From: Eledone cirrhosa
Taxonomy: Eukaryota
DNA length: 64,000 nt
NCBI GenBank assembly: GCA_964016885.1
Contig: OZ024743.1
Coordinates: 342,116,001-342,180,000 of the forward strand
Reading direction: 5' to 3'
Every line of letters begins with the position of its first letter. The first letter of the stretch is position 1. Position numbers and translations under genes: made by a program. Positions 8,195 through 44,814 of the stretch are shown here, in pieces. The notes beneath the pieces were generated by a model that was not told where the DNA came from, made no database searches, and saw nothing but the letters and a program-made list of their open reading frames with translations.

Positions 8195-8308
8195 TGTTTC
8201 TACTTTTGGCACAAGGCCAGCAATTATCCCAGTGTATTACTGGTACTTTATTTTATCGACCCCGTAAGGATGAAAGGCAAAGTTAACCTCGGCGGGATTT
8301 GAACTCAG
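8195..8308 (-). mobile_element. 5'-truncated SINE copy abutting an RTE fragment
   Basis: Same SINE 3' half as 7962-8176. Confidence 0.8.
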
Positions 8309-9025
8309 GGCGGTTTCCATCCGGGGATGGGTTGTGTTGATCAAATCTTCATTCTCCGGCGGTCCTGGAACAACGGTGGGCACATCAACAGCCTACCGTC
8401 CTCTGCTTCATCGACTTTGCGGCTGTCTTCGACTCGGTGGATCGGGAAGCCCTATGGCGTATAATGCAGGCGTCGGCATCCCAGTGAAGCTGCTTCGTTT
8501 CATACAAGGCTACTACTGGTCGACTCTGGCTCGAGTGAGGGTCTATGGTGGGGAGACGGAGTCGTTCGATGTAGGGCACATGGGGTGTGCGCTATCGCTA
8601 ACTCTCTTTAACTACGCAATTGACTACACTCTCAACTCAGCGCTCCGGGATTACCCGGGCGTAGAGGTCGGGAGAGAGGTCGTGGTGACGGACCTGGCCT
8701 ACGCGGATGACATCGTGCTGATGGGCGCTGACGGGACAGATGTACAAGGTGCTCTCGAAAGGGTACACACTGCAACCGCCGCTGTTGGTCTACGAATCAA
8801 TGCCGCCAAGTCACTGGTCTCGCCTGATGCCTGGCAGCCAATATCTCACGAGGGCGCGGACCTGGAGGATGTAGAGTCCTTCGTTTACCTGGGCTCAACA
8901 GTGGTTCCAACGGGACAGGGCGCTGCCAGATCCGCTTTGGAGCACCTGCTGCGGTGTCTGTGGGACAGAAGAGAGATCACCTTGGCGACCAAAAGGCGAA
9001 TCTACCAGGCCGTCGTTCGCACCTG
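8309..9025 (+). mobile_element. RTE-clade LINE reverse transcriptase fragment (pseudogene)
   Basis: CFIDFAAVFDSVDREALW (alternate frame), GCALSLTLFN, DLAYADDIVL, GLRINAAKS, VESFVYLGS. Confidence 0.85.
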
Positions 9026-9154
9026 GCCTAGTTTTCTCAACTATCATTTAGAGTGGTTGATTATTATTTCCTTTCATTTATGTTCGCAAGACTGCACTTC
9101 TAATCTTATAGAAACGCACACAGGAACATCCACCCACGCACACACACAGACTCA

Positions 9155-9190
9155 ACTATGATGAAAGAATAGTGTCCGAAACTTTAAGAC
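9155..9190 (+). ncRNA. Degenerate HHR motif, family shared with 39816-39852
   Basis: ATGATGA-aagaatagtgtcc-GAAAC-tttaagac followed by tail and (TA)n. Confidence 0.45.
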
Positions 9191-9338: not shown

Positions 9339-9741
9339 GAGAGAGAGAGAGAGAGAGACAGAGAGAAATTCAGCGAGAATCGGGTAGAGAAAGCGAAACG
9401 CAAAATCAGAGTTATGCTGGCAAGCGCTCAATAGTTAAAAAACCAGTGCTAAACATATATGTTAAAACGCCATACAAACTGAAAAAGGGGTCAAGAAGGC
9501 ATTAACCACCTAAGCCAAAAAACAAGTGAACCTAAACAGGTCACACAAAATAAATGATAAAATCATATATATATACATATACACATATATAACCGACCTG
9601 GACCCATTGGAATTGATGGTAAAAAAAATATATATATATATACACACACACACATATATATATATATATAAAGAAAAAAAGATGAAATCGAAAATGCAAC
9701 TGGAGTCTTATTTTTTTTTAAATATATATATTTATTTGGTT

Positions 9742-9779
9742 CCTTTACCGGTTTCGCAGTTTTTCTGCTTTTCAAAAGT
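9742..9779 (-). ncRNA. Type I HHR, U3:A8 core variant (family A)
   Basis: Minus strand ctt-TTGAAAA-GCAG-aaaaa-CTGC-GAAAC-CG-GTA-aag. Confidence 0.75.
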
Positions 9780-9868
9780 AGAGTTGGGATGGAGGGTCTG
9801 TGGTTCTTCTCACAGCTGGTTGGTCTTTGAATGTTACTTGTTTTATATGCAAAAAAAAGTGGCTCGAA

Positions 9869-9911
<43 letters not shown>

Positions 9912-12606: not shown

Positions 12607-12837
12607 AATAAACGAAGCTAAATTTTAAACATTTGACTTTTTATTTAACTTTATTTTACATTACTCCGGAGTAACCAAACCAACCTGCGCACTTCGTCGA
12701 GTACTCCAGCCTGCATATTGAGATGTTGGTATACAACCAACATATACTCAAAATCTATCTATATATATATATTAGAAAGTGAGGGTTTTTTTACAAAATG
12801 AAAAATAACCGAGGTGTCCTACACGAGTGAAAGTATA

Positions 12838-13127
12838 ACGAAAAAGAGATGAAATCGAAAATGCAACTGGAGTCTTATTTTTTTAAAAATATATATATTT
12901 ATTTGGTTCCTTTACCGGTTTCGCAGTTCTTCTGCTTTTCAAAAGGTGAGTTGAGATGGAGGGTCTGCGTTTTTTCTCAGATGTGAGAAAAATCACAGAC
13001 CCTCCATCTCAACTCACCTTTTGAAAAGCAGAAGAACTGCGAAACCGAAAAAAGGAACCAAATAAATATATATATTTAAAAAAAAAATAAGACTCCAGTT
13101 GCATTTTCGATTTCCTCTCTTTTTCTT

Positions 13128-13130
<3 letters not shown>
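12838..13130. repeat. Fold-back palindrome of HHR family A
   Basis: ~140-bp arms centred near 12981; plus-strand HHR copy 13017-13055 has lost its GTA triplet. Confidence 0.9.
12909..12946 (-). ncRNA. Intact type I HHR, U3:A8 core (family A)
   Basis: cctt-TTGAAAA-GCAG-aagaa-CTGC-GAAAC-CG-GTA-aagg. Confidence 0.82.
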
Positions 13131-13158
<28 letters not shown>

Positions 13159-23558: not shown

Positions 23559-24118
23559 TAGCCGAATTACTCGCGCCTTTCACACATTTTTTTTGTAAGA
23601 AAATGATGATTGATTTTAAAACAGTGATATACTTCGTGGAGAAAAACTTTGCATTTCAATATTACTCAATGTAAAATGTAATGCATGAAAAATTGGAAAA
23701 CATTATTTTTTGTAATATGTCAAATCAAAATTACATTATTAAATCTTATTCTTATTTTGTTTCTTGTAAATAATTTTTTTTTCAAAATATCAATTCAAAA
23801 CCTTTGTGAATAGGCATCATAGGGTTTAACCCCAATTAGGGTGTCTTAATATTATTGAAATTTGCTGAAATTCTGTGAATATGCATCATATCTTGTCATT
23901 TACATATGGTTTAAATTTCATATAAATCGAAGGGAACACATTTTCAGCGGGCGTTTTGTGCCCCCGAGGAACCCTTTGATTAAAATGAAATATACTTATC
24001 CAAGTACCCTGGGCAATGTAGTTTCAGAATATATATGGTTAAGGGGGTATATCTCTAAAAGAATAGGAGGAGTACGTGAACAAACAAACATTCGAACAGC
24101 CAGGTATATATATGTGTA
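23558..24118 (-). mobile_element. Non-autonomous Helitron-like element
   Basis: CTAG 3' end at 23558 with subterminal GC-rich motif; 5' region with tgtttgtttgttcacg microsatellite. Confidence 0.55.
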
Positions 24119-24359: not shown

Positions 24360-25025
24360 CGAAACCTCATGGACAATACCAGGATTAGACATATCTACAA
24401 AGTACGAGCGAAACAATTGATAGTCGGGACTAGAAGAATTTTGGTAAAGTTTATATACATTTTTTCTTTAAACTTACATTTTAGACTTAGCTCCGTTTAA
24501 TTGATTATTTTCTAGTTAATTTCTACGGACTAAGAAGAAAGACTAGGTAAATTTTATCTGACTGTTCCTCGCGGGGGATAGTATTCGAAATTACATTTTA
24601 AACTTAGCTCCAAACTTACAAATTTATATAGCACTGATTAATGATTATTTGCTTAATTAATTTGTTCATTGAGCCACACGGTGAAAGGTCGCCACACTCA
24701 TATATGTATCTGTGACTATGTCTAAATATATACATATACATCCCTATGAATTTATTCTATAGTCCCGTTCGGTCGAGTAAACCTTAGGCGGTAACTGGCT
24801 GTTCCTTTTAGAAGCCAACCTACCTGCCATCTGGCCTGCCCTTCACAACCTTCTACTTTGACCGCTGGCCACGTGATAATTCTTATCCATTTTCAATTCA
24901 TTTTCGGCGACGATCATTGTAGAAATGTTAGTCCTAACTGAGGAGTCTCTTGAAAAGCTCGAAACCTCATGGATAATACCAGGTTTGGACATATTCACAA
25001 AGGACGAGCGAAACTATCGATAGTT
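24360..25025 (+). mobile_element. Retrozyme-like 600-bp unit with a permuted U3:A8 HHR (family C)
   Basis: 24361-24424 repeats at 24961-25024; composite agtctc-TTGAAAA-GCTCG..CGAGC-GAAAC-TATCGATA-GTC-gggact. Confidence 0.75.
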
Positions 25026-25274
25026 TCACAAACTGGAGGGTGGTGTTTTTGTGGCTATGCTATATAAGTGTTTTGGATATAAGGCTTTCTATCAATTATA
25101 TCTTTATATTTAGGCATGGATATAAATAGGTATGATTTTGGTGCCGTATTATAAATTGAGGGGGTATGTATAACTATCATTTATTTATCTACGAACTAAG
25201 TTCCTGACTAAATATGAATTGTATATATATGAAATCCAATAATGATTTAACAGAACATTATATATCACATTTGT

Positions 25275-25464
25275 GGATTGGGCGGTGGATTGGCAGTATC
25301 AGTAGAGGGTCGGACGCCATGCTTTCCAGCATAGTTACGTCCCTTTACGATCTGAGTTCAAATCCCGCCGAGGTTGACTTTGCCTTTCATCCTTACGGGG
25401 TCGATAAAATAAAGTACCAGTAATGCACTGGGTAATTGCTGGCCTTGTGCCTAAAGTAGAGACA
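25275..25464 (+). mobile_element. tRNA-derived SINE with 18-bp TSD
   Basis: attatatatcacatttgt at 25257-25274 and 25465-25482; gagttcaaatccc B-box. Confidence 0.9.
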
Positions 25465-25946
25465 ATTATATATCACATTTGTTGTATTTTAATAAAGAAA
25501 CTCTCCACGTACATTCCACGTTAGCGTAAGGATTAAACCATACGTTATAATTCTGAGAACAAAATGTGGCCTAAACTGTTCTTGCTCCTTAATATTCTAC
25601 TGTTCATTTACAAAGTAAATGTAGCCCAAGAGCTAAAATATTATCTGTGCATTATATTTTCAATAATAGTAAAAGCGTTTGCCAAGAAAAATGTACTTAA
25701 AGATTTACATTACGCAAGACTTAAAATCTATGATATCTCTACATAATTCTTTATCAATAAATAGCATATTAATTTCTGTAGGCCAATTGAGTTGATAACA
25801 GAAAATCTGTAGTCTCATCCAACCATATCCCTCGGGAAATATAAAGAATAGAGATGAAATTTCCGCTTATATATTCTCAATAGGAAATGTACCGTTCCAA
25901 GATGAGATTTTGAATACTATGAATGCGTTATATTTATCTATATTTG

Positions 25947-27187: not shown

Positions 27188-27385
27188 GGGCGGTGCATTG
27201 GCAGTATCTGTAGAGAGTCGGACGCCATGCTTTCCAGCATAGTTACGTCCCTTTACAGTCTGAGTTCAAATCGCGCCGAGGTTCACTTTGCCTTCCATCT
27301 TTACGGGGTCGATAAAATAAAGTACCAGTAATGTACTGAATAATTGCTGGCCTTGTGCCAATAGTAGAAACAATTATTATTATTA
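27188..27385 (+). mobile_element. tRNA-derived SINE with (ATT)n tail
   Basis: Same SINE family; ATT repeats on both sides. Confidence 0.85.
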
Positions 27386-31155: not shown

Positions 31156-31218
<63 letters not shown>

Positions 31219-31798
31219 AAAAAAGTTGAAATCGAAAATGCAACTCGAGTCTTTTTTTAAACAAATATATATATTTATTTGGTTCCTTTCCCGGTTTTGC
31301 TTTTCAAAAGTAGAATTGGGATGGAGGGTTTGTGGTTTTTCTCACATCTATATATATATAATTATACAAATTATACCTACCTATATATATGTGTGTATGT
31401 GCATGACTGTGTAAATGTGTGTATATATATATACAAATGTATATATATAATTAGATAGTGTGAAAGAGGGGAAGAGACAGAGTGAGAGAGAGAGAGAGTT
31501 GAAACATGGAGCGCATGGAATAGCTGTTAAATCAGCCGGATTTCGTCAATGGCAACCGTATGTACAAATGCACAGGGAAGCACGTATCTTACGATAGTCT
31601 CTTCAAATTAACACAACGTTACGTCAACTGCAAGGCATTGAGGGGAAATCAGGGATCTAATACGAAAGAAAAGATATATTCTCGAAAAAATAATAGGACA
31701 TTTTATCAGTGTTATCACTTATAAAAATTCTACTGGGGAGTTATTTTTCTTTTTGCAGGTAGAATGATATGAAATAAGAATTATATATAATATATACA

Positions 31799-40992: not shown

Positions 40993-43900
40993 CTACAGGC
41001 TGATATAGAGAGAAGGCCCATTCACTCGGGCCATTCTCGCCACTTTCACCCACCTTTCATAAAACTTGTGGGGTACAGCACCTCTCTCTCCATCCTGATT
41101 CTTCTTCCAAAGTGGTATTTGAAAAAAAGAATCAGTTGTTCGCCGGAGAGAAAGGTGTCTGACCTCAGCCCTTTCAACCTTGTCCACCATACAACCTCTT
41201 TCGCCAAAGCTATCACACAAAGGAAAACCGCCTCTCCTTCGTTTTTGAAGGAGGGTGGCGGTTTGTTCATGACAATGGACTCGGTGGTCAACTGGATTGG
41301 TCCCACCCGCGACAATAGTCGTTCTACATAGCCCCACAGGTCAGTGACGCCCGGGCTGTGTATGAATGCGTGCGCGACGGTTTCTTCGTGTCGCACGGAC
41401 CTTGGACAGATCTTTTTTGCAGGGTCCCTGCCCGGGCGCCCATGTTTGTAGAGCTTATCTCGAACTGGTAGAGCTCCTCGGTAGCACTGCCAGGCCAGGG
41501 ACTTTGGGAATTTGTCCATCGGTCCCGGGCGGAAGGTCCTACCGAACAGACTGGCCAGTTCATCTTCCTCTACGCCTAGAGTTTCACCGAGCGCGTCGTC
41601 GCACTTGCTGCGGATCAACCCTCTATAGAATGACGAAGTGGAGTCTCCACTGATCGCCAGGTCCGCCTGCCAGAGGGCTGTGAGCGCCTGAGCACATTCG
41701 ATGTGCCAGTTGCCCATTTTCCTCGGTCTTTGCTTGACCCAGGACTGCAGCTCGGTCAGCGAGACGAGTCGTGGGAATGCTCGCCTCACGAACGGGGCCC
41801 ACACCGGTTGTCCGGTGAGGAATACGTAGAGTTGGCGCAGCCTGAGCGCGTGTTGCGCATCGTCAACCACGGCATCCCCAGCCCGCCGTTAGAAGGGTGT
41901 TGGCAGCAGATGGATCTTCTCACCAAAGGAGCCCGCCTCTTCCAAAGATATCGGAAGAGCGCGCGTTCCATTTTGGCGAGCGTTTTGGCTGGACAAGGCA
42001 CGACGGTCAAGCGGTAGTAGATGGCGGACGCTATAAAAGTGTTCGGCACCTCCGCTCGACCTTTCAAGGATAGTTTGCACTCGGCCCACTTCTGGGTGAG
42101 TGCAAACACCTTGGCCGTCACTGGGTTCCAGTTCTCTCCACCTGGAGGTCCGGACCAAACCAGACCCCGAGCAGCTTTTCCTGGTCCTTCCGTCCAGCGT
42201 CCGACGACGCCATCGGAAGGCATCGGTTTGCCTCTCCACGATCCGAGTTGCAAACCGATGGACTTGTCCCGGTTCAGCTTCGCTCCTGTGAAACTTTCGT
42301 ATTCCTTCAGTAAGGTGGCGACTTCCTCGATTTGCGAGGCGCTCAACACCATTATTGTCACGTCGTCCCGGTTCCAGAGGGATGCCCTGCAATAGCTCCA
42401 ACTTCCGCAGTAGTGGCTCGAGAGTCAGTACGTACAGAAGGGAGGAGAGAGGGCATCCCTGTCGAATGAATCGCGTAATATGGAACGGCTCCGAGAGGTA
42501 GCCGTTCACCTTGACCCTTGAGCAGATGTTGCTGTTGTGCATTGCAGCAATACAGCCCCTGAACACGGGTCCGAAGCCTGCCGCCTCGAGCACCGCATCC
42601 AGGTAACGATGGTCAACCCTATCGAAAGCCTTAGACTGATCCAAGTTGAGCAGGGCCCCACCGAAGCCAGGTTTACACCCTACCCTCTCTATGATGTATC
42701 GCATGAGGTGGTCGGGATTGCGCATGTCTGCGCTTCTCCCACCAGGTTCTCGACGACAAGCGCCAGCCTCTTTGCCAACACCTTGGCCAAAATCTGTAAC
42801 ACTGTGTTTAGCAGAGTTATGGGCCGGAAGTTGCCTATGTCATCCCCCTTATTCTCGTCCTGCCTGATTAGTGTGACCCCGCCCCCGGTTACAGAACTGG
42901 GAATTCTCCGGTTCTGTTGCCAGTTGCAGTAGACCGCTTCCAGGAGACCGGTGAATAAGTCCGGCATTGTTACGTAAAATTCGTAGGGTTAAACCGTCGA
43001 GACCCGGAGATTTGCGTTTGCCGCATTGGCTCAGCGCGTCCCCTATCTCACTGGCTGAAATCGGCTTTTCGCAGAACTTTGCCTCGCTGTCCGAGAGTCG
43101 CGGTAGGCCGTCGAGGTATGGACCGAAATCCATAGCCTCTCCCGGCGCGCCGCCCCTCCCGAACAGCTGAGCAAAGTGCCGCTGAAAATCCGCACACATC
43201 TGCTCGGCTCACGTATCACGCGTCCGTTTTGGTCCTTCAAAGACCGAATCGTGGTCTTGTTGCCACTTTTTGCCTCCGTCACTCGGGCCCAGCTAACAGC
43301 TTTGGCTCCCTCGTTTCCCAGAGCACGTATTTTGCTTCTGACAACGCAGCCCTCGTGCTTTGCGTCGAAGAACTGGTCCAAGGCCGTTCTCGTTGCTAGC
43401 ACGCTGGCTACGTTGCCACTTCTAATTGCCTCTTCTACTTTATCTACCAGTTCCTTCTCGGTTCTATTTCTATCTAACGCTAATTCTTTACTAAAAACTA
43501 TCGAGTCTAATCTAACTGCCCTCTTGAGAGAGTACCACCATCTGTTGTTGACAATGGCCCCTGTCAAGTGCTGTTTAACTAAAGTGCTAATCCGTCTACT
43601 GTAGGCTTTGCTTGTCGGTAACGACAAGTTCATCTTCCAGTAGCCGGGTCCTTGTCTATGGGTTCTATCAAGGTTGGCCATGCAGGTCACTAGTTTGTGA
43701 TCTGAATAGGCAACCACGAACATTTGTGGACAGCTTAACATGTCCCTATCCTTATTTCTAACTAGAACCCTATCTAGGTACGATCTAGATGTTTCGCTAC
43801 GATTACTCCACGTCCACTGTGGCGCAGTCGGAAAATCTAGTCGATATCTATCGGCCAGGTCAAATCGGTCGATCAACTGTTTGAGGCTGTTACACCCCCC

Positions 43901-44377
43901 TTTATCGGGACATGCTCCCACATAGTCCCAACGTGCATCTAGTATTCCATTCCAGTCCCCCACTAAAAGCAAGGAGCGGGACGTTCCCAGAAAAGTCTCT
44001 AGACGTCTGAAGAAGTCTGGCCGCGGTGTCCCGGATGGGGCATATGCGGCCACCAGCCTGAAGGCTCCACCTTCACTACCGTCAACGTCTAGGACCAGCA
44101 GTCGACTCTCCGGGTCCAGATGTACCGTCTGTGTTACGAGGCTCAGGTGTTTCCGCAGCAAAACAGCAACTCCGCCCCCACCCCCCGGTTGACAGAGAGA
44201 TGCGTAGATCTCAAAGTCATCGAAGATGGGGGCCAGCTGTCGCTCGCTGTGGATCCTGGACTCGCAAATGGCTACCACATCCATACTGTGCGACCTGAGG
44301 TCGTTTAAGAGTTTGCCCTGTTTCCAGGGCATCCCTAGGCCGCGTACGTTCACACATCCAACTCTTATATTGGCCAT
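40993..44377 (-). pseudogene. Tx1 ORF2 (APE endonuclease + reverse transcriptase), frameshifted
   Basis: CVNVRGL, ICES, AYAP, VGDWN, SYLDR, YSDH; KSPGLDGL; NFRPITLLN; LDQSKAFDRVDH; IRQGCPLS; CPRS..EETVAHAF. Confidence 0.92.
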
Positions 44378-44814
44378 AGATTTTAGACAAGGTGGGATGT
44401 AGTTTCCAGGATAGGTTTTGCACTCTCATTAAGAGGCGGGTATATGTGCCATCCAATCTCCTCTCAAGTTGTGATGTTAGTGTCCACGTTTCGGATCCAT
44501 AAAGTAATATGGGCTTAATGGTTGCTTGGAATATTTCCAGTTTTAGCTTGTTGGTAAGTTCTAAAATCCCGGAGAGCTCAATTTGCTGGCCACTGTCACC
44601 GTGCCAGCAATGAAATCATATCCGCTCTCTTGCTCTGGAACCCTGACTCCAGCCTGACTAGGAGTAGGAAGCTGTCATTCCCTGACGTTATCTCTAGGGA
44701 TACGGCAATCAGTAGACAGGACCTGGGGGCGGCGATGAGGGACAGGGAATTCTGGGGCATGAGAGTGAGATCCATCATCTCGACAGTAGTCGACGAATGA
44801 TGATGATGATGATG
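44378..44814. mobile_element. 5'-inverted RTE LINE 3' insertion with (TGA)n tail and 11-bp TSD
   Basis: Plus 44566-44800 RRAQFAGHCHR..LLLWNP..AMRDREFW then tgatgatga; minus 44378-44560 ILLYGSETWTLT..RRLDGTYTRLL..HPT..IYG; atattggccat at 44367-44377 and 44815-44825. Confidence 0.92.

Follow-up and report, generated by a model that had tools for sequence, protein, structure and literature searches.

A dispersed family of putative non-LTR retrozymes with predicted pseudoknotted type I hammerheads in the genome of Eledone cirrhosa

Non-LTR retrozymes of animals, as described in the parts of two sources used here, are non-coding, AT-rich units with one type I hammerhead ribozyme, which occur as monomers and short tandems, are predicted to form strongly self-paired circles, and coexist with Penelope-like elements (PLEs) (PMC7229834; bioRxiv 10.64898/2026.07.22.740005). 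An origin from PLEs has been reported; 24 of 57 retrozyme families in Xenopus match Repbase elements, nearly all of them PLEs, and 8 of the 9 Xenopus retrozyme dimers tested did not cleave (bioRxiv 10.64898/2026.07.22.740005, in part). The pseudo-LTRs (pLTRs) of PLEs carry type I hammerheads with a palindromic helix III suited to dimers and with U3-A8 covariation, including the U3-A8 form of Schistosoma mansoni Cercyon; these are minimal motifs flanking an open reading frame (PMC4209133, in part). Pseudoknots between stems I and II have been predicted in about 40% of hammerheads (PMC3088659, in part). U3:A8 cores (in PLE hammerheads and beyond), stem I/II pseudoknots, and animal retrozymes are thus all already published.

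Here we report a locus of Eledone cirrhosa and the repeat family to which it belongs (family A). The locus lies in a stretch of 64,000 nt (the window; assembly GCA_964016885.1, contig OZ024743.1, positions 342,116,001–342,180,000), and its parts are listed in Table 1. The original prediction described it as a 600-bp unit with a split ribozyme that ends at its own cleavage site, and took it for a copy of a self-cleaved multimer or circle. We consider it probable that the window copy is instead a 5'-truncated, internally deleted, and 3'-broken copy of a 704-nt retrozyme, which would have been inserted into a TA-rich target by the borrowed reverse transcriptase and endonuclease of a PLE, and whose stop at the cleavage site would go back to a later deletion.

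Table 1. Parts of the family A copy (window positions) and loci of the sister families.
Feature	Position	Strand	Remark
First hammerhead, 5'-truncated	24360..24425	+	Stem II 5' strand to loop II, GAAA, stem III, to GTC; unit positions 639-704
GTC triplet of first hammerhead	24423-24425	+	
Stem I 3' strand, first hammerhead	24426..24431	+	Helix covaries between families
'Tail' part of unit (unit 1-302)	24426..24624	+	Diverged internal sub-repeats; deletions of 22 and 80 nt
Equivalent of commonest family A 3' end	24624	+	From alignment to the 704-nt unit
Remainder of non-coding unit	24625..24938	+	~70% identity to sister families B, C, D
Equivalent of second family A 3' end	~24755	+	Unit ~433
Predicted pseudoknot, 5' strand TGAGG	24939..24943	+	Directly 5' of stem I
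Stem I 5' strand	24944-24949	+	Second hammerhead
Core TTGAAAA (U3-A9, U3:A8 pair)	24950-24956	+	Second hammerhead
Stem II	24957-24961 with 25005-25009	+	Closes a 43-nt loop II
Predicted pseudoknot, 3' strand CCTCA	24965-24969	+	In loop II, complementary to TGAGG 24939-24943
Extra hairpin, then A-rich linker	24970-24997 (hairpin)	+	Inside loop II
GAAA	25010-25013	+	Second hammerhead
Self-complementary stem III	25013-25024	+	Includes GT of the cleavage triplet at 25023-25024
Perfect 18-nt palindrome	25010-25027	+	Stem III extended by the junction
Right flank of element	25025..25285	+	One genome match; no (TA)n at junction
Family B, unit 657-710 nt	L172-L201		2645 first-look candidates
Family C, unit 689 nt	L202-L226		1330 first-look candidates
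Family D	L227-L251		2459 first-look candidates
Family F, unit 485-490 nt	L252-L276		2149 first-look candidates

The repeat and the type I hammerhead halves with their U3:A8 core are real and lie where they had been placed: a direct repeat of 65 nt (24360-24424 and 24960-25024) with 88% identity and a spacing of 600 bp. The ribozyme is not split in any special way; both halves belong to one type I motif, which recurs in two consecutive units that are each truncated. Neither hammerhead of the window copy is complete. In the first the 5' half is missing, in the second the stem I 3' strand: similarity to the element stops at GT 25024, and the sequence 3' of it offers no stem I partner. At its left edge (24360, unit position 639) the copy adjoins a (TCTA)n/(TC)n microsatellite. 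It is 93% identical to the 704-nt unit of family A (about 7% diverged) and has lost about 105 nt, mainly in the two deletions given in Table 1. These deletions account for the 600-bp spacing, and a 600-nt unit is therefore rejected as a property of the family, in which other tandem spacings are 698 and about 693 nt. The two hammerhead copies have no private variant in common and differ from the family A majority at 5 and 3 separate positions, which makes them uninformative on one shared template. An alternative canonical core, CTGAGGA (24938-24944), was discarded; it is the product of a 1-nt deletion in the window copy, lacks a stem II, and does not adjoin stem I.

Family A yielded 2125 first-look candidates in the 3.0 Gb genome, 40 of which were scored. 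The majority unit of 704 nt, in which the usual end lies 302 nt past the cleavage site and a further 402 nt lead to the following one, exceeds the 150–450 bp given in PMC7229834 and falls within the 51–972 bp of bioRxiv 10.64898/2026.07.22.740005 (both in part). It is non-coding: the longest frame starting with ATG has 43 aa on the sense strand and 72 aa on the antisense strand. Most insertions fall short of two units in length, and head-to-tail tandem units are present at three loci (L170, L171, and L007). When circularised, the unit is predicted to fold with a z score of -6.4 (25 shuffles), and the 600-mer of the window with -3.6. The family thus combines a non-coding unit bearing one type I hammerhead with tandems and a self-paired predicted circle, and by these testable features of its sequence it is a dispersed non-coding non-LTR retrozyme of the animal type. 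The origin from an RNA multimer or circle that had been proposed for the window copy is supported for family A in general. A promoter of the U1/U2 (snRNA) type was sought with a matrix built from 8 U1/U2 upstream regions (leave-one-out scores 4.4-27.6); the maximum score in the unit was 2.8, within the range of shuffled sequences (mean 0.9, sd 3.1). Pattern matching in the unit detected neither an A box nor a B box of the tRNA kind. Two copies (L168:3939-4870 and L169:3410-4031) contain internal tandem expansions of 93 nt and about 130 nt directly upstream of the hammerhead, which suggests repeated slippage on the template.

The 5' ends of family A copies are scattered (23 to more than 700 nt upstream), and the 3' ends are concentrated. 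Among 98 3' ends, 58 lie at the end of the tail and are followed by (TA)n, 5 lie there with another flank, 6 run on, and 29 occur earlier, although three of the early ones (L020, L103, L118) resemble internal deletions or artefacts rather than ends. The usual end falls about 302-308 nt past the cleavage site, in (TA)n, and a second one at unit position ~430 (429-439); both sites coincide with TA-like sequence in the unit.

The original prediction had expected 3' ends to cluster at the GUC triplet when other copies were aligned. The sites were recovered with an unbiased anchor, a 21-mer that ends at GT and is silent on the downstream sequence (104 exact genome sites, of which 98 distinct ones within the fetched family A loci were used). 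Past the cleavage site, 97 of the 98 continue, 94 of them ungapped into the stem I partner and 3 through small deletions; only the window copy stops there. Genome-wide, the pattern of a 17-mer followed by N-GGG gave 112 matches. With N and three bases other than G after this 17-mer, there was a single match, the window copy itself; by our estimate, this second pattern would catch only about half of random breaks. Clustering at GUC was thus seen neither in the 98 sites nor genome-wide, and units of this family do not as a rule end at their own cleavage site. The original prediction would have abandoned its reading of the 3' end as a record of self-cleavage if other copies continued past this point, as they do.

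The simplest reading is that the stop of the window copy is likely a later deletion. The copy has neither of the normal family A 3' ends and no (TA)n at the break. The junction 25024/25025 lies inside a contig spanning 24969-25299/25300 that shows zero differences in 3 of 3 runs (one sample), so an assembly error is unlikely. A later insertion that split the copy was also set aside: no remnant of the tail was found elsewhere in the window, which is why a deletion is preferred, and a more distant rearrangement is possible. From the 29 early ends over 290 nt, the chance that a break falls within 2-3 nt of the cleavage site is about 18-26%, a figure to be read with the fact that the locus was picked for its stop at this very site. 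The 18-nt palindrome at the junction could be a trace of fold-back repair.

It is improbable that reverse transcription of the window copy alone began at the 3' end of a linear RNA produced by self-cleavage, in a family that normally starts internally, so that the end of this copy would be a fossil of cleavage. Such an origin would account for a break at position 16.1 or 17, no more than one base from the cleavage site; the junction is real, and a weak in vitro band has been attributed to priming at the template's 3' end (PMC11167929, in part). However, it would have happened at one of 98 sites (1 against 112 genome-wide, by the stop pattern that catches about half of the breaks), and the junction lacks the (TA)n target present at 58 of the 63 tail-ended copies. 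Breaks are common in the family, as the 29 of 98 sites that end early at scattered places indicate, and the stem III palindrome with its three additional bases at the junction would suit fold-back repair equally well. Moreover, a cleaved 3' end bears a cyclic phosphate, and the copy is already about 7% diverged.

Both orientations of the element are present in 22 of 115 distinct family A loci. In a tally of these, 12 have back-to-back arms with one end at ~308 and the opposite one at 429-439. A single locus combines 308 with 312, no locus has two far ends, and in the remaining 9 an arm ends elsewhere or the geometry differs, so that the clean pairing is missing in 10 of the 22. Rare variants are common to segments within an insertion at 7.4 per kb (42 pairs), compared with 0.4 per kb between insertions (14879 pairs), a within-insertion rate that is inflated by subfamily structure and later duplications and that does not tell a circular template from a linear multimer. 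This excess fits the use of one template per insertion. A few near-identical pairs (L170, L082), which could be later duplications, contribute a disproportionate share of the common variants.

Fixed internal 3' ends, variable 5' truncation, an inverted 5'-truncated arm, and AT-rich or microsatellite targets are traits of PLE insertions. The inverted 5'-truncated arm and the microsatellite bias have been described for PLEs (PMC8557442, in part), and an anole PLE has fixed internal ends, two internal start sites of reverse transcription, a tail, and AT-rich targets (PMC11167929, in part). Because the fixed internal ends, the two start sites, and the AT-rich targets of family A match these published traits, its footprint points to a likely mobilisation by a PLE. 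The closest counterpart is Poseidon PAc, with 3' ends at two internal sites downstream of the hammerhead and AT-rich targets; however, the ends of family A are about 125-130 nt apart, compared with a tail of 30-40 bp in PAc, they coincide with TA-like RNA, whereas the PAc start sites are reported not to be homologous to the target, and family A is non-coding, unlike PAc (PMC11167929, in part).

Mobilisation may proceed as follows. Read-through transcripts of tandem units would self-cleave into unit RNAs, probably as dimers because stem III is palindromic, and the cleaved RNAs may circularise. A PLE protein would nick (TA)n in the target DNA, and reverse transcription would start inside the RNA at the TA-like sites 302 or ~430 nt past the cleavage site. 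It would copy back across the cleavage junction and drop off at a random point, which would leave insertions made of a partial unit, a hammerhead, and a tail. The two-armed insertions would arise if, on a single RNA circle, the PLE protein began at two fixed sites separated by about 125 nt, each site serving one DNA strand. For the anole PLE, no RNA reads ending at the hammerhead site were reported, and cleavage was not needed in vitro (PMC11167929, in the portion used).

The genome is rich in (TA)n and contains 10596 GIY-YIG candidates. At L153 (G000:C1:145869000-145876000, minus strand) lies a PLE with an open frame of 937 aa, with GIY-YIG above the cut-off and RVT_1 just below it. Both of its terminal repeats carry a U3:A8 minimal hammerhead, 4979 nt apart, and its tail of about 143 nt ends in (TA)n as in family A. 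Terminal-repeat fragments of this PLE family occur in the window at 9667-9874, 12765-13131, and 31212-31349; the second consists of two arms, whose 3' ends differ in position by about 65 nt. In a single case (L098:1206-1270), a PLE minimal hammerhead directly adjoins, close to the cleavage site of the PLE, a family A fragment that is truncated at its 5' end; a template switch between PLE and family A RNAs is possible. No DNA similarity was found between the family A unit and the terminal repeats of autonomous PLEs in 30 GIY-YIG loci, 15 larger PLE loci, and two PLEs, a search for a partner that covered 30 + 15 loci of the 10596 candidates. Family A is thereby set apart from the many Xenopus families with matches to PLEs, no homology to a pLTR having been found for it.

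The repeat might also be the solo or tandem pLTR of an autonomous PLE, left behind by 5'-truncated insertions, and not an independent non-coding element. We regard this as highly improbable. PLE pLTRs do bear type I hammerheads, including U3-A8 forms (PMC4209133, in part), truncated PLE insertions leave the same pattern of ends, and the autonomous PLE at L153 has an identical core string. However, tandem units adjoin each other directly with no frame between them, both at L170, where three hammerheads lie about 693 nt apart or less, and at L171, and no frame with reverse transcriptase and GIY-YIG domains was found between family A repeats in the loci examined. A PLE protein match within -1600 to +1200 was present at only 2 of 117 family A sites and at 1 of 106 sites of families B, C, D, and F, and the 5' ends do not cluster at a junction with a reading frame. 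The hammerhead of family A, with its 6-bp stem I, 5-bp stem II, and large structured loop II, differs from the minimal pLTR motifs (PMC4209133, in part).

The pursuit of weak matches brought up the sister families B, C, and D, which share about 70% identity with A, and family F, which has no blastn similarity to A in this region (Table 1). All four are non-coding, with C3:G8 cores, a long loop II, and fixed (TA)n ends; their best copies are 94-99% alike, which indicates that they are younger than family A. In this group the core (C3/U3-U-G-A-N-G8/A8-A), GAAA, and an NUH triplet follow each other in type I order, and the 3:8 pair, U3:A8 in family A and C3:G8 in the others, covaries within the group, as in PLE pLTR hammerheads (PMC4209133, in part). 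In all five families, stem I has 5-6 bp, stem II has about 5 bp, and loop II measures about 40 nt; stem III is palindromic in four of them. Across 15 sequences of families A-D, 94.9% of the cells in stems I-III are paired, compared with 34-42% in slid controls; the sequences are related, and these percentages are not a probability. Double changes occur at 7 of 13 stem pairs, and the pairs of stem III never vary. Among 71 copies of family A, the core varies at position 7 only (44% majority, compared with a mean of 96% for the other six). The Rfam hammerhead models gave no match in the window; at E up to 1, they also missed the motif in 7 of 7 loci with a long loop, as well as the minimal motif of the PLE.

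The pseudoknot that had been suspected between TGAGG and CCTCA is borne out as a prediction that covaries across the sister families. In all five, a strand that lies 0-1 nt 5' of stem I is complementary to one that lies 0-3 nt past stem II. These partners are TGAGG/CCTCA in A, GAGC/GCTC in B, TGAGTT/GACTCA in C, TGAGTT/AGCTCG in D, and GAAAAG/CTTTTC in F; within loop II, the second strand is succeeded by a hairpin whose sequence differs between families. The pairing was scored by script, since the MAFFT alignment shifted the strands by one or two columns from one family to the next. Three pairs are invariant in A-D, and the pair next to them is G-C in A, C-G in B, U-A in C, and U-G in D. The predicted pseudoknot is probably genuine; it would supply the contact of stem I with stem II that active hammerheads need.

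It is unlikely that the motif is a hammerhead in decay or of weak activity, carried passively, to which the pseudoknot and the hairpin are incidental. The three invariant pairs may reflect descent, strands swapped among families A-D also pair, shuffling within single families gave modest p values (0.03, 0.20, 0.04, 0.45, and 0.07), and nearest-neighbour folding favours other structures in A, B, and C. Yet the pair beside the invariant three differs in each of A, B, C, and D, family F has its own 6-bp helix in the same place despite its lack of blastn similarity to A there, and the placement is the same in all five families, each time with a following hairpin of its own sequence.

When folded without the pseudoknot, the family A hammerhead is in 3 of 3 copies 8-10 kcal/mol less stable than an alternative rod, whose pairing of the upstream strand across the cleavage site buries that site; the corresponding gap is about 8 in B, about 6 in C, 0.2 in D, and 3 in F. 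According to these models, the preference of family A for the rod may represent a switch or a sign of weak activity. In the former case, the upstream strand would protect the circle while held in the rod and would activate cutting once paired with loop II. As a tentative overall picture, held with somewhat less than even confidence, at least five families may have an undescribed loop II, invisible to Rfam, that combines a pseudoknot with a stacked hairpin; the upstream strand of family A would act as a switch, and the two-armed insertions of these families would record two starts of a PLE protein.

In animal retrozymes, the place of this loop is taken by the canonical contact between loop 1 and loop 2 (PMC7229834; bioRxiv 10.64898/2026.07.22.740005; both in part), which the ~40-nt loop II with its predicted pseudoknot and hairpin replaces in family A. 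For the pseudoknotted hammerheads of PMC3088659, the main-text passages, supplements apart, describe neither an additional loop II hairpin nor the context of an animal retrozyme, and the permuted hammerheads of PMC10085705 (in part) are not applicable to family A. Literature searches on hammerheads, retrozymes, cephalopod PLEs, enlarged loops, and three-way junctions, supplements and subscription papers apart, turned up neither family A nor a loop II with pseudoknot plus hairpin.

The window contains further repeats. A frameshifted LINE (41046-44425, minus strand) has endonuclease, reverse transcriptase, and a weak zf-RVT match in separate frames, and a fragment of a reverse transcriptase domain lies at 8274-9161 (RVT_1, E 3e-09). 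To the left of the element is a fragment of a high-copy repeat (23940-24060). Two copies of a very high-copy repeat of 190 nt (25280-25469 and 27188-27377) are 92% identical; we presume a resemblance to a tRNA-derived SINE, and ARAGORN detected no tRNA in this repeat.

The locus is not a genomic fossil of ribozyme cleavage; that headline claim fails, and the main inference drawn from it is wrong for family A. The study adds a naturally covarying set of long-loop type I hammerheads with predicted pseudoknots in animal retrozymes. Because standard Rfam models miss such hammerheads, elements of this kind are probably undercounted, and the young families B, C, D, and F lend themselves readily to cleavage assays. 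It also adds two fixed 3' ends that are paired across two-armed insertions, and with them exact predicted start sites of reverse transcription, which let the copying of non-coding RNA in trans by PLEs be tested. Such copying has been proposed in print, and a demonstration for retrozymes was not found in the parts of the retrozyme and PLE literature examined. Both the structural variant and the paired ends add modestly, and in a testable way, to what is known of retrozymes.
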